Part shown: positions 2 through 31,366 of the stretch, one piece after another
Position numbering within the stretch: the stretch's first letter is position 1
Layout: every line of letters begins with the position of its first letter
Origin: Candidatus Nanoarchaeia archaeon
Lineage (GTDB): Archaea > Nanobdellota > Nanobdellia > Woesearchaeales > JANQNE01
Direction: 5' to 3'
Assembly: GCA_028279725.1 (NCBI GenBank)
Contig: JANQNE010000007.1
Location: 99,406-163,405, forward strand
DNA length: 64,000 nt
Position numbers and translations under genes: made by a program
The notes under the pieces: model-generated
The model's input: only the letters and a program-made list of their open reading frames with translations
Told to the model about the DNA's origin: nothing
Databases searched by the model: none

Positions 2-373
2 ACAGATAAGATAGGGCATAAAAAAACACTCATAATAATACTCCTCAGCTGGATAGCTATAATACTGCTATTATATTTCATAAGCAACCTGATCACCTAT
101 GTAATAGTTGGATGTGTGGGAGGAGCATTGCTCGGTGGAGTCTGGACAGTTACAAGGCCTATGCTTCTTACGCTGGTTCCAAAAGAAAAAGCTGCTGAGT
201 TTTTCGGATTCCAGGGGCTTACAGAGAAGTTTGGAGGAGCTTTAGGACCTATACTTTTTGGATATGTCGTAGTAAGAGCAGGCTACAAGCCAGCCTTGCT
301 AATCATAATTGCGCTCCTTATCATCGCTCTGTCACTTTTCAGATTTATCCCGACCAAAAAGGTGAACCTATAG
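2..373 (+). CDS. MFS-type transporter, C-terminal fragment. The frame is open from the window edge, so this is 5'-partial. It is possibly an LplT-like lysophospholipid transporter given the Aas-like gene that follows.
   Basis: The frame is open from nt 2 with no stop. The sequence is a hydrophobic TM-helix protein, LLIIIALLIIALSLF. The ORF track starts it at GTG 116. The LplT analogy rests on synteny only. Confidence 0.45.
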   Translation, partial: TDKIGHKKTLIIILLSWIAIILLLYFISNLITYVIVGCVGGALLGGVWTVTRPMLLTLVPKEKAAEFFGFQGLTEKFGGALGPILFGYVVVRAGYKPALLIIIALLIIALSLFRFIPTKKVNL

Positions 374-377
374 ACAT

Positions 378-2813
378 ATGGCATTAAAAACATTCAAAGA
401 ACTGATAGATGGATTCAAAGACTCAGATAATACAGCGGTAATAAATAGAAAAGAATACAGAAAATTCACCTATTCTTACAAACAGTTGTATATTCTTTCT
501 AAGAAATTCTCAGCCTTTCTAAACAAGAACAACATAAAAAAAGGAGATAAGATAATTGTCTGGAACTATAACAGTATAGAATATGCTTTGATCTTCTTGG
601 GAGCTTTTTTAGAAGGAGTTATTGTAGTGCCTATAGATCTTAGATCAAACATAGATCTTGTGGAAAAAATACAGAAAGAAGTGAAAGCAAAGATAATATT
701 TCAGACAAGATACAGGTCAAAGCTAAAAAAAGCAAAGACAGTATTCACAGAAGATATTCTGGACATCTTAGAACAGATAAGACCAAAAAAAAGCTCAGTA
801 AATATTAAAGAGAACGATATCGCTGAGATAATCTACACATCCGGAACAACCGGAAATCCAAAAGGTGTTATTCTCACAAACAAGAACTTCATCTCTAACG
901 TAAACGCCCTGAATAAGATAGAAAAGATACAGCCATGCTTCAGATTTCTTTCAGTCCTTCCTTTAAGCCATGTATTTGAGCAGGTTGTAGGGCTATTCAT
1001 ACCATTATCAAACAGATCTACGATTGTTTACATAAAAGCTCTAAAGACGAGAGCATTGTTCGAGGCATTTAGTGAGGAGAAGATAACAAACATGGCTACG
1101 GTTCCAAGGCTTCTTGAACTGATAAAGTCAGGGATAATGAAAAAAGTGAAAGATAATAAGAAAGAAAAACAGTTCCTCTCTGCGCTAAAGATCTCAAGCA
1201 AGCTCCCTTACATTCTAAGAAGATTCATATTCAGGAAGATACACAAAAAATTTGGAAGCCATGTAAATTATTTTATGTCAGGCGGAGCAGCTCTTGATCC
1301 AGAACTGGAAAAGTTCTATGATTCTATGGGGGTAATTCTTCTTCAGGGATACGGCCAGACAGAAACATCTCCTGTCCTTACATCCAACACACTAAAAAAT
1401 AGAAGGATAGGCTCTGTCGGAAAAAAGATTCCAGGAGTCAGCCTAGAGCTGGATAAAGAAGAAGTGCTTGCCAAAGGGCCTAATATAACACAAGGTTATT
1501 ACAAAAATCCAAAAAAGACAAAAGAACTGTTCAAAGACAGCTGGCTAAAGACCGGAGACTTAGGCTATTTTGATAAAGATGATTTTCTGTTCCTGAAAGG
1601 AAGGAAAAAAGACTTGATTGTGACAGCTGCCGGAGTAAATATCTATCCAGAAGACATAGAATCTATATTAAACAAGACTGAAGGAGTAAAAGACAGCTGC
1701 ATCATAAGTATAGACGACAAGATACATGCTTCCCTATTGCTGAAAAAAGGGACAAACTTAAAGAAAATAATTCAGCAGGCTAACTCAAAGCTAGATTCTT
1801 CGCAGAAGATACAGGATTCCAGCACCTGGCCTTATGAAGATTTCCCAAGGACAACAACTATGAAGATAAAAAAATTCGCAGTAAAAGAGACGATCCAGAA
1901 CAAGGCAAAGCCGAAGATCACAGAGAGAAAGAACAAGCTTTTCAGCATATTATCACAGTTGACAGACAAAAAGATAACAAAAGATTCGACACTCCAAAGC
2001 CTAGGTCTTTCATCAGTCGACAGAGTAGAGCTGATCTCTCTCTTAGAGCAGGAATTCAATATCGAGATAGATGAGGAAAATATATTTCCAACTACAAAAG
2101 TAAAGGATCTTGAAACAATAATAAAACAGAGAAAACAGGTAGAAGAAAATCCGATATTCAAAACATGGGCTCTATCACTGCCGATCAGAGTGATCAGGGT
2201 AATCGCACAGGCATTTATCCATTCTTTTGTAAGATTCTACAGCTGGCCTAAGGTTGAAGGAAAAGAAAATCTCAAAGGAGTTAAAGGACCTGTTATATTC
2301 ACAGCAAACCATCAGAGCCATTTTGACACCCCTACAATATTCACTAAGCTGCCCCATAGATTCTCAAAGAAGATTGCAGTTGCAGCATGGAGGGAGCACT
2401 TTTTCAAAGATAATCTTGAATTCAAGAGCAAAGGGCTAAGAAATCTATTTTACGCTCTCACGATAGTGTTTAACATCTACCCATGGCCACAAAACAAAGG
2501 ATTCAGAAAATCGTTGAAATATACAGGAAGCTTGATAGACAAAGGATGGAACATATTGATATACCCAGAAGGAGAAAGAAGCAAGACAGGAGAGTTTCTA
2601 GAATTCAAGCAGGGCATAGGTATAGTTGCTGTAGAAACAAAAATCCCAGTAATACCGATAAGAGTCCATGGAACTAGAAACTCGCTTCCAAGAGGGAAAA
2701 ACTGGCCAACTTTTGGAAGATCTAAGATAAAGATTGGAAAACCTATTATAATTAAGGAAGATTCTTATATCAAAGCAGCCAATAAGATAGAAAAGGCGAT
2801 AAAAGAACTATGA
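378..2813 (+). CDS. Tri-domain fusion protein, Aas-like. Order: AMP-dependent acyl-CoA/acyl-ACP synthetase, then an acyl carrier protein domain, then a 1-acyl-sn-glycerol-3-phosphate (lysophospholipid) acyltransferase.
   Basis: AMP-binding signature IIYTSGTTGNPKGV plus YGQTE. A central phosphopantetheine-attachment-like segment LGLSSVDRVELISLLEQEFNIEIDEE (DSL-type serine). A C-terminal PlsC-family HX4D motif NHQSHFDT plus a YPEGERSKTG (FPEGTR-like) motif. Confidence 0.75.
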   Translation: MALKTFKELIDGFKDSDNTAVINRKEYRKFTYSYKQLYILSKKFSAFLNKNNIKKGDKIIVWNYNSIEYALIFLGAFLEGVIVVPIDLRSNIDLVEKIQKEVKAKIIFQTRYRSKLKKAKTVFTEDILDILEQIRPKKSSVNIKENDIAEIIYTSGTTGNPKGVILTNKNFISNVNALNKIEKIQPCFRFLSVLPLSHVFEQVVGLFIPLSNRSTIVYIKALKTRALFEAFSEEKITNMATVPRLLELIKSGIMKKVKDNKKEKQFLSALKISSKLPYILRRFIFRKIHKKFGSHVNYFMSGGAALDPELEKFYDSMGVILLQGYGQTETSPVLTSNTLKNRRIGSVGKKIPGVSLELDKEEVLAKGPNITQGYYKNPKKTKELFKDSWLKTGDLGYFDKDDFLFLKGRKKDLIVTAAGVNIYPEDIESILNKTEGVKDSCIISIDDKIHASLLLKKGTNLKKIIQQANSKLDSSQKIQDSSTWPYEDFPRTTTMKIKKFAVKETIQNKAKPKITERKNKLFSILSQLTDKKITKDSTLQSLGLSSVDRVELISLLEQEFNIEIDEENIFPTTKVKDLETIIKQRKQVEENPIFKTWALSLPIRVIRVIAQAFIHSFVRFYSWPKVEGKENLKGVKGPVIFTANHQSHFDTPTIFTKLPHRFSKKIAVAAWREHFFKDNLEFKSKGLRNLFYALTIVFNIYPWPQNKGFRKSLKYTGSLIDKGWNILIYPEGERSKTGEFLEFKQGIGIVAVETKIPVIPIRVHGTRNSLPRGKNWPTFGRSKIKIGKPIIIKEDSYIKAANKIEKAIKEL

Positions 2814-3211
2814 TGAGATCAAAAAACTGGAAAAACACACTTGCTCGTGACACGATGGTCTTAGGTGGCCTTCCATTCTACTTTATTGTCGCAGTCAGGG
2901 CAGTAATCGGACAGTTCGCACCTTTTGTAACACAGCTTGTCATCGCACTTATTGTCATACTCATCCTATCCAGGATGATCAAAAACTCAGACCAGTATAT
3001 TGCACGTGCACTTGTCCTTGTAGTTTTCACATCAATATTCTACAAAGACTCATTCTTCACAGTCTTTGCATCTTTATTATGGTTGATGATGATCATATCT
3101 GCACTTTACTTGAAGGTCAAAAGCAGCGAAATAAGCAAAGGGATATTCATTGGGATTATCGCAGCCATAATAAGCCATTACCTAACTCCTGTAATCATAC
3201 AATTGATTTAG
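2810..3211 (+). CDS. Small integral membrane protein, hypothetical. Translationally coupled to the Aas-like gene through an ATGA overlap.
   Basis: Four predicted TM segments. The start overlaps the stop of the upstream gene. Confidence 0.4.
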   Translation: MMRSKNWKNTLARDTMVLGGLPFYFIVAVRAVIGQFAPFVTQLVIALIVILILSRMIKNSDQYIARALVLVVFTSIFYKDSFFTVFASLLWLMMIISALYLKVKSSEISKGIFIGIIAAIISHYLTPVIIQLI

Positions 3212-7589: not shown

Positions 7590-8495
7590 TTGATGAAGCA
7601 TACATTAAAGATTACACTTATACTGATCTTATTCTTCCTGATTACACAGGTTGTAGGGCTATCTATAATAAACAGTTATATCGACCACAAAACATCAGTT
7701 GAAACAGGAAAATCAACATTCAAATCATTACCAGGTGGCCTAGAACGTCCCCAGGTTGAAGAAGAAACTTCTTATATTCCGATATTTGCTGCAATAATTG
7801 TGGGGACTCTGCTGATATTGTTGATAATCAAGATGAAAAAAGTAAGATTATGGAAATTTTGGTTCTTCTTATCTGTCTTATTGTGCCTCACAGTTGCACT
7901 TGCAGCTTTTTTCCAAAGTATATATGCTTTCATTGCAGCATTGCTCTTATCATTACTAAAAGTATTAAGGCCAAACATCTACATACATAACCTAACTGAA
8001 ATCTTCATCTATGGTGGACTTGCAGCGATCTTTGTTCCTATCATCAGCTTTAATTCGGTCATTGTCCTTCTGCTATTGATATCAATCTATGATATGTTCG
8101 CAGTTTGGCAGAGTAAACATATGGTCAAGCTTGCTAAATTCCAGACAAATTCTAGATTATTTGCAGGTCTGCTTATACCTTATTCATTACCAAAAAAAGC
8201 TAAGAAAACAGGAAAGACTAAGATGGTAAAGGTTAAAGCAAACAACGCAATCCTTGGCGGAGGAGATATAGGCTTCCCATTAATCTTCGCAGGTGTTGTC
8301 ATGAAAAACCTCATGCTTCAAGAACCAATGATGACAGCATTCCTAAAGACACTGATCATCCCATTAATAGTAAGCTTCGCACTTCTATATCTTTTAGTAA
8401 AAGCAGAAAAAGACAAGTTCTACCCGGCAATGCCCTTCCTATCTATTGGATGTCTGGCTGGATATGGCGTTTTGACATTAATTGCTTTATTATAG
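7590..8495 (+). CDS. Presenilin / signal-peptide-peptidase-like intramembrane aspartyl protease, GxGD family A22.
   Basis: Multi-TM protein. YD motif SIYDMFAVW. GxGD-type motif LGGGDIGFP. C-terminal PAL-like FYPAMPF. Confidence 0.6.
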   Translation: MMKHTLKITLILILFFLITQVVGLSIINSYIDHKTSVETGKSTFKSLPGGLERPQVEEETSYIPIFAAIIVGTLLILLIIKMKKVRLWKFWFFLSVLLCLTVALAAFFQSIYAFIAALLLSLLKVLRPNIYIHNLTEIFIYGGLAAIFVPIISFNSVIVLLLLISIYDMFAVWQSKHMVKLAKFQTNSRLFAGLLIPYSLPKKAKKTGKTKMVKVKANNAILGGGDIGFPLIFAGVVMKNLMLQEPMMTAFLKTLIIPLIVSFALLYLLVKAEKDKFYPAMPFLSIGCLAGYGVLTLIALL

Positions 8496-9418: not shown

Positions 9419-9665
9419 GGGCAAGCTAGACTGGACAGTTAGCTCCTGTCTGTAACCACAACCGAGCTATATGGTGGAGTCGAAGTTTGGAGAGCGCTAT
9501 AGGATTGGCTTATTGGTCTTGAGTTGGACGTTGAAGTTCTGTCCTATAGGACTGGTGCCTTTGAGAATCGGGTCAGGCTGGGAACAGAGCAGCCCTAATC
9601 ATTAGTATTGGTGCTTGTAGGGTAGCGGAATTGAGGAAAATTCAAGGTTAACCATTAGGTTTTTT
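9419..9665 (+). ncRNA. ffs: Signal recognition particle RNA (7S / SRP RNA). Boundaries are approximate.
   Basis: A GC-rich stretch with no ORF in AT-rich surroundings. GGUCAGGCUGGGAACAGAGCAGCC matches the universally conserved SRP domain IV (helix 8) motif GUCAGGUCCGGAAGGAAGCAGC with a GNRA-type loop. It ends in a T-run at 9660-9665. Confidence 0.6.
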
Positions 9666-9924
9666 CTTATATCCATCTCTTTACGTGCTTGCCCGCTTAC
9701 ATTCACCACTTTCTGAAGACTATCACCAAAAAATTTATATAAAACAAACACCTAACAGCTAATTATGAACACCACAAGTAAAATCAGTATATTGAATGTT
9801 CTGGTCTTGCTAGTGGTCGTTGTACTGTAAAGCTCTCAGGCTTCGCTTGGGACTTTGCATGACTGATTCTAAAATGTAATATTCTCAAGCTGAAAAACCA
9901 AGAGCAAATAGGAGGCAAATAGAA

Positions 9925-17398: not shown

Positions 17399-17475
17399 GC
17401 GGCCATGGTGTAGCCTGGCTAGCATAGGGGACTGTGGATCCTCTAGGGCGGGTTCAAATCCCGCTGGCCGCCCCA
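17399..17475 (+). tRNA. tRNA-His(GUG), intronless, with G-1 and CCA encoded.
   Basis: Acceptor GCGGCCA / UGGCCGC, discriminator C, then CCA. A G immediately 5' (17398) can serve as G-1. D-loop AGCCUGGCUA. Anticodon stem-loop GGGGA-CUGUGGA-UCCUC. T-arm GCGGG-UUCAAAU-CCCGC. A T7 run follows. Confidence 0.8.
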
Positions 17476-20296: not shown

Positions 20297-20637
20297 GTTG
20301 TAGGGTAGCTGTAAGCCACCTTCTGTCAGACCCTCATGCAACACTGGTTACGATGGTCTGCCTTAGCATTTAACTAAGCGTCATTGCCGAATCATTGTTG
20401 ATTCAACATTTTCGACTTGCACAAGCCAGGTCTCGCCGTTTCACCCATTCTCACCAAAACATCAGTTGGTTAACTCCCTTCTCTCGCGAGAAGCTTCACA
20501 ACATCATCTTATCGGTAAGTGGTCTCGTTTCTGAGCCGTTGCCGCAGGTTTCCCCGCCTTGATTCCGCAAGTGGCCACGTATAGTGGGTGGACTTTCCTC
20601 AGACATATGTCCGTCAGCTAAGCACTACCCTACAGCC
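20297..20637 (-). ncRNA. rnpB: RNase P RNA.
   Basis: The minus strand contains CR-I-like GAGGAAAGUCCACCCAC. CR-IV-like AAUGGGUGAAACGGCGAGACC. CR-V-like GACAGAAGGUGGCUUACAG. A P1 helix CUGUAGGGUAG / CUACCCUACA joins the ends. The region is GC-rich and ORF-free. Confidence 0.75.
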
Positions 20638-29278: not shown

Positions 29279-31366
29279 TCAAATATCCTTCCTATGCACC
29301 AGATATATCAAAAGAATAACAAGCAAAAAAACAATCCCTCCTAAAACTAGCTCCTTAGCTTTATAAGAAGTAGATTGGTATATTACTCTCGGACCATCGC
29401 CAGTCGCTAAAACGATTCTGCCAGTCATGCCACTTACATCTTTTCTCAGGCTGTTTTTTTCAAAAAAATCCCCATCCAGATACTCATTTTCTCCAACATC
29501 AACAAAGCCAGTCTCATCAACTGATATTTCTTTCTTTTCAAAATCAAGAACACCATTATTCTCTAATCTTATAAAGAACACGTTCCTTTCAGAAGCAGCA
29601 TCAAAATTAAAACTCAACTGTTTTTCCTCATCTTCCTTCAGATCAACATCCAGATTCTTACTTTCAAAAAAAGTATCTACAAAAACATCCAGTCCCCTTA
29701 TCTCCTTACCATAATTTTTGATCCTTGGATAAAGTCTCAACTGCCCTTCGCTAAAATTAACACCAACATCTTCTATTTTACAGCTTATTCCTTGTTCAGC
29801 CTCAACAATTATATCTCTGGTTATCTCTTTCAAGGTCTTCTGATTATCTTTTCTTATCTTAACCTTAAACTTATACAGGCCCGGATCAGCACTTTCAATT
29901 TTATTTGATAATTTAACAACTAAAGAATCCCCTTCCCTGATAAAATCCTCTTTCTTATTCTCTTCTCTGTCCCCACTATACACTTTACTTCCTCTATAAA
30001 CATAGCTCCAAAACTCAACCTTAACTCCTGAATCATCATTATTCATCATCTCAACTCTGCTTTCAAACTTCTCTCCAACCCTTACTTTTTCAGGTAAAAA
30101 CAACAGACTATAATCAAATTTTCTTTTGTTTGCTTTATCTTCCTCACTAAGATAAACCTCCTCACACATCTCATCAGTTATATCTTCAACCATGAGATCA
30201 AAACTGTCTTCTCTATCAAGGCCCTCAATAAATAGCGTATAATTTCCATCCTTATAATCATAATCACAGTTAGGTTTTAGCTGAACAGGTATTGTCAAAG
30301 TATAATCAGTAAAATCTGTATAAACGTTTGTCTTAGACTCCTTGCTTATCCTATCACCTTTATCATTTTCAACCCAGAGCGCAATGGAATTTTTGGTAGA
30401 AACTCCTTTGTAAACAATAACATTAACTCTTAAAGTCTGGCCAAACTTAGCCTTATTATCGGTTCCAAGATCATATATCTTCTCTATCTTGAGATAAGAT
30501 TCATTGCTTTTCTCTTCTTCTTTTACTATTATAACTTTTGAATCCATATCATTGCTTGAATCAGTATCATTACATCCAGGAAATATCACAGTATTTATCA
30601 CATAACTTCCTTCATCAAGATTTGGGGAATAACCATATGTCTTGTGATTTGTGATCTCATTCGTCAGATTTGCATAGCTTTTAACCAGTTCTCCGGAACT
30701 GCTTCTTATCTCTTTAAACAAAGTGACATTGCTCTTATTCCCATGCTTTCTTTTAATATAGATGTCAAAATCAAAATTATTTCCATCATCAAAAAAAGAT
30801 TGATTGGTAATTACACTAACACTAAAATCGCATCCTGTCTTTTCAGCTTCATAGCTTCCGTCATTGCTATAGCCGCAAGTCACATTCCCTTTATCCCAGG
30901 AATCGTTGAGCAAAAACCAGCTATTTCCTTCATCAGTCTCATTATAAGAAAAAGAATCAATTAAACTCCCCTCAGAATCATATAGGTACAAAGTATCTCC
31001 ACTATTGCTCAATCCATTTCCTATTGAGCTATCATCAACATATAATCTCAAAACATTATTAGCACAGTCAAAATTATCATATGTTCTTGTAGAGTCATCA
31101 GTTATCAATGCGTATGCTCCTGCACCCAATATAGTTCCACTCCCAAAATATAATCCACCTTCAATTGTATCATTATCATTAGAATCTCCAATTATCCATC
31201 CGCTCAGATTAACACCTGAACTTCCGCCATTATACAGCTCAACCCATTCATTCAGATTTTCATCTGCAATAGGGTCTGCCATAATCTCATTTATCAAAAT
31301 GTCTGCTCTAACTACTGAAACTAGAAATAATACAAAAAATCCAAAAATTGCGATTTTTTTGTACAT
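29279..31366 (-). CDS. Secreted surface protein with an N-terminal lamin-tail-domain (LTD)-like module and a C-terminal TM anchor.
   Basis: Signal peptide MYKKIAIFGFFVLFLVSVVRA. LTD-like ILINEIMADP...NEWVELYN...VNLSGW. C-terminal hydrophobic LVLGGIVFLLVILLIYLV followed by HRKDI. Confidence 0.5.
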   Translation of the reverse strand: MYKKIAIFGFFVLFLVSVVRADILINEIMADPIADENLNEWVELYNGGSSGVNLSGWIIGDSNDNDTIEGGLYFGSGTILGAGAYALITDDSTRTYDNFDCANNVLRLYVDDSSIGNGLSNSGDTLYLYDSEGSLIDSFSYNETDEGNSWFLLNDSWDKGNVTCGYSNDGSYEAEKTGCDFSVSVITNQSFFDDGNNFDFDIYIKRKHGNKSNVTLFKEIRSSSGELVKSYANLTNEITNHKTYGYSPNLDEGSYVINTVIFPGCNDTDSSNDMDSKVIIVKEEEKSNESYLKIEKIYDLGTDNKAKFGQTLRVNVIVYKGVSTKNSIALWVENDKGDRISKESKTNVYTDFTDYTLTIPVQLKPNCDYDYKDGNYTLFIEGLDREDSFDLMVEDITDEMCEEVYLSEEDKANKRKFDYSLLFLPEKVRVGEKFESRVEMMNNDDSGVKVEFWSYVYRGSKVYSGDREENKKEDFIREGDSLVVKLSNKIESADPGLYKFKVKIRKDNQKTLKEITRDIIVEAEQGISCKIEDVGVNFSEGQLRLYPRIKNYGKEIRGLDVFVDTFFESKNLDVDLKEDEEKQLSFNFDAASERNVFFIRLENNGVLDFEKKEISVDETGFVDVGENEYLDGDFFEKNSLRKDVSGMTGRIVLATGDGPRVIYQSTSYKAKELVLGGIVFLLVILLIYLVHRKDI

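Follow-up and report, generated by a model that had tools for sequence, protein, structure and literature searches.

A fused adenylating, acyl carrier and acyltransferase enzyme at an archaeal locus that may serve fatty-acid salvage and lipid re-acylation

The window, by which we mean the whole 64-kb stretch of DNA analyzed, opens with three closely packed genes on the forward strand. The first is cut by the window start; its reading frame is open from base 2 and closes with a TAG stop at positions 371-373, leaving a 4-nt gap before the ATG of the second gene at position 378. The second encodes an 811-aa protein, and its stop overlaps the start of the third, which encodes a 133-aa protein, in an ATGA. 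An earlier note, made from the letters of the sequence, had described these three open reading frames and proposed translational coupling of the enzyme gene to that of a small membrane protein; both the positions and the overlap agree with that description. The features are as follows.

2..373, + strand: C-terminal part, 123 residues long, of an MFS transporter of the Atg22/UMF1-like kind (gene cut by the window start)
378..2813, + strand: tri-domain enzyme of 811 aa, with ANL adenylating, acyl carrier and PlsC-type acyltransferase domains (Pfam)
423..1907, + strand: adenylation (AMP-binding) domain, residues 16-510 (PF00501)
837..866, + strand: adenylation P-loop TSGTTGNPKG, a motif in the 811-aa protein
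1863..1865, + strand: codon of the A10 catalytic Lys496, in the adenylation domain of the 811-aa protein
1956..2111, + strand: acyl carrier (PP-binding) domain, residues 527-578 (PF00550)
2013..2015, + strand: codon of the predicted phosphopantetheinyl Ser546 (alignment to solved ACPs)
2250..2666, + strand: PlsC/AGPAT-type acyltransferase domain, residues 625-763 (PF01553)
2310..2312 and 2325..2327, + strand: codons of His645 and Asp650 of the HX4D motif, in the acyltransferase domain
2810..3211, + strand: membrane protein of 133 aa with four hydrophobic segments (ORF and hydropathy)

The window carries an archaeal RNase P RNA, an archaeal SRP RNA, an archaeal-type TrpRS and a presenilin-type protease, and so bears out the earlier claim that the genome is archaeal. 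The GC content of the tri-domain gene (0.366) matches the window mean (0.367 +/- 0.021) and is therefore not that expected of an assembly chimera. GC3 also fits the window, and relatives of the gene are placed among archaeal housekeeping genes, e.g., proteasome and exosome genes. On these grounds, we ruled out misassembly and contamination as well. A scan for sigma-70 promoters and terminators, which says little about an archaeon, gave results near the shuffle expectation.

Pfam searches with the 811-aa protein gave significant matches to all three of the families expected from the serial domains that had been read from the sequence: PF00501 (residues 16-375; E=3e-66), PF00550 (residues 527-578; E=5.3e-7; 30.2 bits, with a cut-off of 20.8) and PF01553 (residues 625-763; E=2.4e-18). 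We counted the conservation of individual residues in 115 full-length homologues. In the adenylation domain, the P-loop TSGTTGNPKG (residues 154-163), the GYGxTE motif of ANL enzymes (GYGQTE, residues 324-329) and the A10 lysine are all present, and Lys496 is invariant (115/115). The carrier segment has the sequence LGLSSVDRVEL at residues 542-552. In alignments with solved ACPs, its Ser546 (the second Ser of LGLSS) falls on the serine that carries phosphopantetheine in LGLDSLDTVEL, and it is likewise invariant (115/115). The earlier reading depended on such a serine, and it is there, together with the helical bundle typical of PF00550 (helices predicted at 520-526, 546-560 and 575-584 in an AF2 model). 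The acyltransferase domain has both the HX4D dyad (NHQSHFD, residues 644-650) and the (F/Y)PEG block (YPEGERS, residues 729-735, with PEG at 730-732) of PF01553. His645 is kept in 114 of the 115 homologues, and Asp650, Pro730 and Gly732 are kept in every one.

Comparisons with solved structures gave a similar picture. The best solved relatives of the adenylation domain are the fatty-acyl-CoA synthetase FadD13 (3R44, 1.9e-33) and MatB, and that of the acyltransferase domain is Thermotoga maritima PlsC (5KYM, E=7.4e-13). The AF2 model of the 811-aa protein (pLDDT, 89.3; pTM, 0.85) matched ANL enzymes and an A-PCP didomain in Foldseek, and it places a long helix at residues 601-621, ahead of the acyltransferase domain. 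Hydropathy peaks at residues 66-84 and 190-208 were rejected as transmembrane segments because they fall within the AMP-binding domain, which is modelled with confidence. Fatty-acid activation and acylation of membrane lipids are the probable functions of this bacterial-style, three-part enzyme.

The fragment upstream of the enzyme gene matched MFS_1 (E=2.9e-16) and ATG22 (E=3.8e-9) in Pfam and is thus part of a transporter, as the earlier note required. It is 50 to 56% identical to the C-termini of full-length MFS proteins of 394 to 404 aa at three related loci (L002, L005 and L006), where the MFS gene also adjoins the tri-domain gene; counting the window and five relatives, an Atg22-like MFS gene is adjacent or nearby in six cases. 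The full-length orthologue from L002 has 12 hydrophobic segments, and its best subfamily is PF11700 ATG22 (E=7e-34). The transporter had been called LplT-like. However, comparison of the full-length orthologue with Escherichia coli LplT gave only E=0.034 across 21 residues, and LplT models were absent among the NCBIfam matches of the MFS. We therefore rejected LplT in favor of the Atg22/UMF1 subfamily.

The description of the enzyme as Aas-like fared better, in part. Distant homology to Aas stood (22 to 25% identity per domain; E=2e-26 and 5e-9), with the domain order reversed and the ACP fused in, whereas an E. coli-type Aas did not: the protein scored 156 bits against the NCBIfam equivalog model NF006386 (cut-off, 1221) and 153 bits against NF005291 (cut-off, 1349), about a tenth of the cut-offs. 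In its strict version, the earlier interpretation amounts to an orthologous bacterial lplT-aas module that was transferred into the archaeon and rearranged. The placement of an MFS gene beside an acyltransferase/adenylase gene resembles the E. coli lplT-aas pair, and the homology of both enzyme domains to Aas points the same way. Against it stand the results with LplT and the Aas models, the different order and fused carrier, and the distribution of the transporter, which is missing from many of the related loci while AcpS is encoded in every one. We consider this strict reading extremely improbable, and it appears to have been largely refuted already by these sequence comparisons.

We compared the neighborhoods of the tri-domain gene in relatives. 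At 12 of 12 DPANN/CPR-type loci, a gene for AcpS (PF01648) adjoins the tri-domain gene or lies at most ~1.5 kb upstream, often in an arrangement with a 4-nt overlap; the AcpS of L003 scored above the cut-off of TIGR00516. ACP and AcpS are not generally known in archaea. A search of the 64-kb window, which starts inside the upstream MFS gene, gave no AcpS homologue, and by analogy with the relatives we would expect one just upstream of window position 1 in this genome. The 133-aa membrane protein matched no Pfam family, and only six homologues of it were found. One of these, 46% identical, is encoded between AcpS and the tri-domain gene at L033.

Three unrelated types of lipase-like hydrolase are encoded beside the tri-domain gene across the loci. 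Four DPANN loci have an archaeal esterase-like alpha/beta hydrolase (best PDB match, esterase 5G59, 2.5e-24), two CPR-type loci have a PGAP1/LCAT-like hydrolase, and Sungbacteria have a patatin-like protein. No such neighbor is visible in the window, given its start inside the MFS gene. In Desulfuromonadaceae, the tri-domain gene is flanked on one side by the gene for MlaA, a lipoprotein of phospholipid trafficking, and on the other by another MFS gene, whose product held up neither as LplT-like nor as an orthologue of the DPANN MFS. AcpS is absent beside this copy, which would be expected to rely on a housekeeping AcpS. A metagenome scan added one further full-length locus. A neighbor-joining tree was used only qualitatively, since it lacks support values and names few of its taxa. 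The sharing of the gene, AcpS and lipases between DPANN archaea and ultra-small bacteria points to a common way of recycling other cells' lipids. The family is common too in free-living bacteria that would be expected to synthesize fatty acids themselves, e.g., Geobacter, and salvage is therefore not its sole role.

The acyltransferase domain departs from PlsC at sites that bear on the acceptor. The block II Arg of PlsC (FxxR) is apparently missing: 'gvfldrknprr' of 5KYM aligns to 'ivfniypwpqnkg', which has no Arg equivalent, and the family consensus at this position is NIYPFPQ. In PlsC/AGPAT enzymes, the block II Arg has been linked to recognition of the phosphate group of LPA or G3P. In block III, the position of Arg734 is Arg in 62 and His in 48 of the 115 homologues. 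The missing block II Arg and the variable Arg734 together make recognition of a phosphomonoester acceptor (LPA or G3P) uncertain. They also favor an alternative in which the enzyme acylates something other than a glycerophospholipid, be it a glycolipid, a lipoamino acid (OlsA-like), a surface protein or glycan or a small secondary metabolite, and the MFS exports the product. PF01553 acyltransferases include non-phospholipid enzymes, and we know of no lipid role for Atg22/UMF1-type MFS proteins. Moreover, some family members are fused to PF01594 permease or glutaredoxin-like domains, suggesting varied contexts. However, the three kinds of lipase/phospholipase-like neighbor and the MlaA gene in Desulfuromonadaceae point to membrane lipids, and the annotated related loci contain no PKS, NRPS or glycosyltransferase genes. 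We therefore regard a non-phospholipid target as unlikely.

An NAD-dependent epimerase/dehydratase gene lies 2.4 kb downstream of the tri-domain gene in the window, separated from it by three opposite-strand genes. The earlier note had suggested that this gene and that of a CrtC/AttH-like protein may belong to the same lipid locus. We rejected this on synteny: the epimerase was absent from all of the related loci searched for it, and it forms a conserved pair with the AttH-fold protein elsewhere. The gene also bears on an alternative in which the enzyme feeds an ether-lipid route like that of Myxococcus ElbD, with acyl-DHAP or acyl-glycerol-phosphate being converted to alkyl ether lipids and the epimerase acting in the role of ElbE/ElbA. 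By published description, the architecture of the 811-aa protein equals the ElbD core, and the elb operon carries two NAD-dependent epimerase/dehydratase genes (PMC9131029). The position and distribution of the epimerase count against this route, as do the lack of a FAR/NAD_binding_4 reductase domain in the 811-aa protein and the lack of AGPS, elbB and elbC homologues among the genes seen. In addition, the acyltransferase activity of ElbD itself has never been demonstrated (PMC9131029). We judge this route quite unlikely.

The domain identities, the conserved catalytic residues, the operon structure and the conserved neighborhoods described above are observed directly. The rest is inferred, namely that the substrate is a fatty acid, which acceptor is used, what the transporter does and that this particular genome encodes AcpS. 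On balance, we lean toward the view that the locus belongs to a self-priming cassette for fatty-acid salvage and lipid re-acylation, in a Woese/Pacearchaeota-type DPANN archaeon that is auxotrophic for lipids; to this extent, the overall interpretation of the earlier note is partly supported. In such a cassette, a dedicated AcpS-type phosphopantetheinyl transferase would convert the internal carrier to its holo form at Ser546. The ANL domain would then adenylate a free fatty acid with ATP and attach it through a thioester bond to the carrier on the same chain, a step for which NRPS A-PCP pairs and ElbD offer precedents. The PlsC-type domain, using His645 and Asp650, would pass the acyl group on to a membrane glycerolipid with a free hydroxyl at the cytoplasmic face; lysolipids and glycerol-phosphate derivatives are the most likely acceptors. 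Substrate may be supplied or flipped by the co-transcribed Atg22-like MFS and the 133-aa 4-TM protein, and in relatives the products of the neighboring lipase/esterase genes may release fatty acids and lysolipids from foreign lipids.

The same chemistry could instead be a sink rather than a building pathway, with the cassette esterifying membrane-damaging free fatty acids from the environment or a host. Ultra-small cells on lysing hosts would meet free fatty acids, and lipase-linked fatty-acid detoxification is known in staphylococci (PMC11096360). Detoxification and salvage look alike in sequence alone, but a dedicated AcpS and an importer-like MFS suit acquisition better than defence, and we consider detoxification very unlikely.

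Salvage could extend further. It is possible, if rather doubtful, that some Woese/Pacearchaeota-type DPANN archaea build or repair their membranes with ester-linked fatty-acyl glycerolipids salvaged from bacteria, by means of a compact, laterally shared cassette (AcpS, ACS-ACP-acyltransferase, lipase and MFS) that CPR bacteria have as well. The salvage reading itself draws support from published work: GGGPS and DGGGPS are missing in Woesearchaeota (PMC8421398), and CPR bacteria have no lipid synthesis, are enriched in lysolipids and had no ACP machinery found in them (PMC7242380). However, the lipidomes of cultured DPANN archaea, all of which have archaeal hosts, consist purely of isoprenoid ether lipids (PMC11035636), and there would therefore be no ester lysolipid in those cells to re-acylate, which counts against salvage. 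Coleman et al. also considered it unlikely that PlsC homologues of archaea have a part in membrane synthesis (PMC6431249).

No enzyme has yet been tied to the way in which DPANN archaea and CPR bacteria obtain and maintain membranes when they do not synthesize lipids. The locus offers a concrete, testable candidate: a single polypeptide that, with a priming enzyme of its own, could make membrane lipid from scavenged fatty acids. The finding also bears on the "lipid divide," since the acylation system in these archaeal genomes depends on ACP, is conserved and is compositionally ameliorated. Probst et al. reported no ACP-producing or ACP-requiring enzymes in the CPR genomes studied (PMC7242380); the cassette shows such machinery in some CPR lineages. 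If some DPANN archaea do use salvaged ester lipids, there would be archaea with partly bacterial-type membranes, and the two ultra-small radiations would share a molecular answer to lipid auxotrophy. Its small size makes the cassette suitable for expression in a heterologous host and for assays in vitro.

Four known systems are close enough for comparison. E. coli Aas/LplT shares the functional logic proposed here, namely ATP-dependent activation of a fatty acid onto a phosphopantetheine carrier and PlsC-family transfer to a lysolipid, and in both cases an MFS gene adjoins the enzyme gene. However, the domain order is reversed here, the ACP is fused in cis whereas Aas borrows it in trans, and the MFS comes from the Atg22/UMF1 subfamily, unlike LplT. 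T. maritima PlsC (5KYM) shares the HX4D and PEG blocks, and the helix before the catalytic core resembles its membrane-anchoring helices; in contrast, its block II FLDR is replaced by NIYPWPQ, and the donor here would be the in-cis carrier rather than free acyl-ACP. Chlamydia trachomatis AasC (CT776) and LpaT (CT775) form a host-lipid salvage pair (PMC5693948). They too combine an acyl-ACP synthetase with a lysophospholipid acyltransferase, in an obligate symbiont that builds membranes from host fatty acids and lysolipids. Unlike the present enzyme, they are separate proteins that depend on the cell's own ACP and FASII; here the carrier is on the same chain, and at related loci the priming enzyme is encoded alongside.

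The closest architecture is that of Myxococcus xanthus ElbD (Q1DC43), for which ACS and ACP activities have been shown in vitro (PMC9131029). Both proteins have an ACS-ACP-AGPAT core in one polypeptide, as judged from the published architecture of ElbD. Unlike ElbD, the 811-aa protein has no N-terminal fatty-acyl reductase domain, its host is an archaeon, and elbB, elbC and elbE are not its neighbors. None of the 12 related loci has elb genes as neighbors; AcpS, Atg22-like MFS and lipase-like hydrolase genes accompany the tri-domain gene instead. Equally close are ElbD-like homologues without the FAR1 domain, which were described by Lorenzen et al. in 2014 and are covered in the review PMC9131029.

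The MFS fragment, the 811-aa ORF, and the 133-aa ORF described in the earlier note are all present at the start of the window. The features of the window that bear on their setting are as follows:

2..373 (TAG at 371-373), forward strand: C-terminal fragment of an MFS transporter, open from base 2 (Pfam MFS_1, E = 2.9e-16)
378..2813, forward strand: tri-domain enzyme, 811 aa (Pfam PF00501, PF00550, PF01553)
2810..3211, forward strand: ORF for a 133-aa membrane protein, its start overlapping the 811-aa stop
7590..8495, forward strand: presenilin-family intramembrane aspartyl protease homolog (NF041679, E = 1.5e-21, below the family cutoff)
9419..9694, forward strand: archaeal SRP RNA
17399..17475, forward strand: tRNA His-GTG, the sole tRNA gene found in the 64 kb
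20300..20633, reverse strand: archaeal RNase P RNA
29279..31366, reverse strand: 695-aa protein with a hydrophobic N terminus and a lamin-tail domain (PF00932, E = 2e-21), probably secreted or located at the cell surface

The MFS stop codon and the ATG at 378 lie 4 nt apart, and the stop of the 811-aa gene overlaps the 133-aa start in an ATGA, in agreement with the proposed coupling to a small membrane protein. We concluded that the three genes belong to a single, tightly packed transcription unit. The setting is indeed archaeal, with archaeal RNase P and SRP RNAs, an archaeal-type TrpRS, and a presenilin-type protease. The GC content of the tri-domain gene is 0.366 (window genes, 0.367 ± 0.021) and its GC3 is 0.381 (window genes, 0.33 ± 0.05). 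Both values lie inside the gene-to-gene spread of the window, indicating a resident gene that is neither a chimera nor a recent import.

Pfam searches of the 811-aa protein recovered the three domains in series that had been claimed: PF00501 at residues 16-375 (E = 3e-66), PF00550 at residues 527-578 (30.2 bits; cutoff, 20.8), and PF01553 at residues 625-763 (E = 2.4e-18). The adenylation domain is most closely related to the fatty-acyl-CoA synthetase FadD13, and also to MatB and MenE; the nearest relative of the C-terminal domain is Thermotoga maritima PlsC (5KYM; E = 7.4e-13). When the central segment is aligned with genuine ACPs, its second serine, Ser546, falls on the phosphopantetheinyl serine of LGLDSLDTVEL, confirming the DSL-type serine noted earlier. 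In an alignment of 115 full-length homologs, Ser546, the A10 lysine (Lys496), Asp650, and Pro730 and Gly732 of the PEG block are each conserved in 115/115, the P-loop core (T154, S155, G156, P161, K162, G163) is invariant, and His645 is conserved in 114/115. We concluded that all three catalytic centers are under purifying selection. The block II arginine of 5KYM (FLDR) is replaced in the 811-aa protein (NIYPWPQ), and block III Arg734 is an arginine in only 62 of the 115 homologs, indicating that the acceptor need not be LPA or G3P. A confident AlphaFold2 model built from 64 homologs (pLDDT, 89.3; pTM, 0.85) resembles ANL enzymes and an NRPS-type A-PCP didomain (McyG, 4R0M). Just ahead of the acyltransferase core the model shows a long helix (residues 601-621); by parallel with the known 5KYM structure, it would sit where PlsC has its membrane-anchoring helices.

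The Aas-like identity, taken strictly, did not hold. An Aas ortholog was rejected, since the two shared domains are only 22-25% identical and the protein reaches just 153-156 bits with the NCBIfam equivalog models for Aas, far under their cutoffs of 1221-1349. A search with the ACP-acyltransferase half alone returned 328 clusters (50% identity level; E ≤ 1e-30). Of the 150 best hits, 89 are proteins of 750 aa or more, and the query matched the C terminus of the full-length proteins among the hits listed, indicating that the tri-domain architecture defines an established, sizeable family. Some members carry further fused domains: an AI-2E/PerM-type permease (PF01594) in P0062 (1207 aa) and glutaredoxin-like domains (PF00462, PF05768) in P0108 (925 aa). 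Full-length homologs are 57-69% identical in Woese-, Pace-, and Nanoarchaeota, about 42-44% in Patescibacteria/CPR, and 38-40% in Geobacter, Desulfuromonadales, Desulfobulbaceae, and Omnitrophica. In a rough neighbor-joining tree, drawn without support values, the window protein falls in a coherent DPANN clade surrounded by CPR and unlabelled sequences, with the Desulfuromonadales copies grouped in a distant clade of their own. Myxococcus xanthus ElbD is FAR-ACS-ACP-AGPAT (FAR, fatty-acyl reductase), and uncharacterized FAR-less "ElbD-like homologues" have been noted in other phyla (PMC9131029; see also bioRxiv 10.64898/2026.06.23.733905). Judged by its architecture, the 811-aa protein is of this FAR-less class. 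Our literature search found no description of such a protein in DPANN or CPR; PlsC homologs have been recorded in DPANN bins by Coleman et al., who considered a role in the membrane improbable (PMC6431249).

The main new evidence is the conserved neighborhood. An AcpS-type phosphopantetheinyl transferase (roughly 105-117 aa) is encoded next to the tri-domain gene or no more than ~1.5 kb upstream of it in all 12 DPANN/CPR-type loci with upstream sequence (L002, L003, L005, L006, L007, L026, L031, L032, L033, L049, L050, L051), often joined to it by a 4-nt overlap. It was assigned as AcpS by PF01648 (E about 3e-11) and, for L003, also by a TIGR00516 score above the cutoff. The L003 and L005 MAGs are titled "uncultured Methanosarcinales archaeon," but their tri-domain, AcpS, and (L005) MFS proteins group with Woese/Pacearchaeota versions; the titles may be a mislabel of DPANN bins. 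L033 encodes a 46%-identical homolog of the 133-aa protein, placed between its AcpS and tri-domain genes; the family of the 133-aa protein is tiny and without annotation. The 64-kb window has no AcpS or hydrolase homolog; if the locus is arranged as in L002, L005, and L006, both would be expected immediately before position 1.

The earlier note also read the transporter as LplT-like. It is an MFS protein, as the MFS_1 match indicates. In L002, L005, and L006, full-length MFS proteins (394-404 aa) encoded next to the tri-domain gene have C termini orthologous to the fragment (50-56% identity). The one from L002 contains 12 hydrophobic segments and matches PF11700 (Atg22-like) over nearly its whole length (E = 7e-34). 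Its NCBIfam hits include no LplT model, and it matches E. coli LplT only at E = 0.034 over 21 residues, leaving the LplT label unsupported. An Atg22-like MFS gene adjoins the tri-domain gene in the window, L002, L005, L006, and L031, making a functional link plausible. L032 has several such MFS genes nearby, and lipase-like hydrolases of three unrelated kinds also occur at related loci:

L032, 1544..5340, reverse strand: three tandem Atg22-like MFS paralogs, about 1.3-5.5 kb upstream of the AcpS/tri-domain pair, suggesting that the transporter partner expanded in that lineage
L002, L004, L005, L006: membrane-anchored alpha/beta hydrolase (best solved relative, esterase 5G59, 2.5e-24)
L026, L050 (CPR type): PGAP1/LCAT/Lipase_3-like alpha/beta hydrolase
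L049 (Sungbacteria): patatin-like protein (25.8 bits, just under the cutoff)

The Desulfuromonadaceae copy (within 1..12000 of L028) has no adjacent AcpS. It directly follows MlaA and precedes an unrelated MFS gene and an OmpA-like protein, with a standalone PlsC-like acyltransferase and a PLD-family gene a few kilobases upstream, a context that suggests envelope phospholipid maintenance.

We concluded that the 811-aa protein is a DPANN representative of the ElbD-like ACS-ACP-acyltransferase family that lacks FAR, and that its gene belongs to a cassette (AcpS, MFS, lipase) shared with CPR bacteria. The family itself is common and already carries generic annotation; as far as the literature could be searched, we found no description of the cassette or of its presence in archaea. 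The earlier observation is confirmed, and the lipid-scavenging reading of it is partly supported: the tri-domain enzyme is there, the LplT label finds no support, and Aas orthology is rejected. The most likely role of the cassette is fatty-acid salvage with lipid re-acylation. A dedicated AcpS would prime the internal carrier domain; the ANL domain would adenylate a free fatty acid and load it onto the Ser546 phosphopantetheine; and the PlsC-type domain would acylate a hydroxyl on a membrane glycerolipid. Substrate supply would fall to the MFS and the 4-TM (133-aa) protein, and in relatives the adjoining lipases may free fatty acids and lysolipids from foreign lipids. The predicted enzymology is well supported as far as acyl-carrier formation; from there we infer the acceptor, and hence the biological product. 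Salvage would suit organisms in which, by published account, lipid synthesis is missing: Woesearchaeota without GGGPS and DGGGPS (PMC8421398) and lysolipid-rich CPR bacteria without lipid pathways (PMC7242380). Against it, cultured DPANN lipidomes are purely isoprenoid (PMC11035636), and family members are also present in bacteria for which endogenous fatty-acid synthesis would be expected. The proposed salvage cassette shares its functional logic with Aas/LplT and with the chlamydial AasC/LpaT salvage pair (PMC5693948), but differs from both in architecture.
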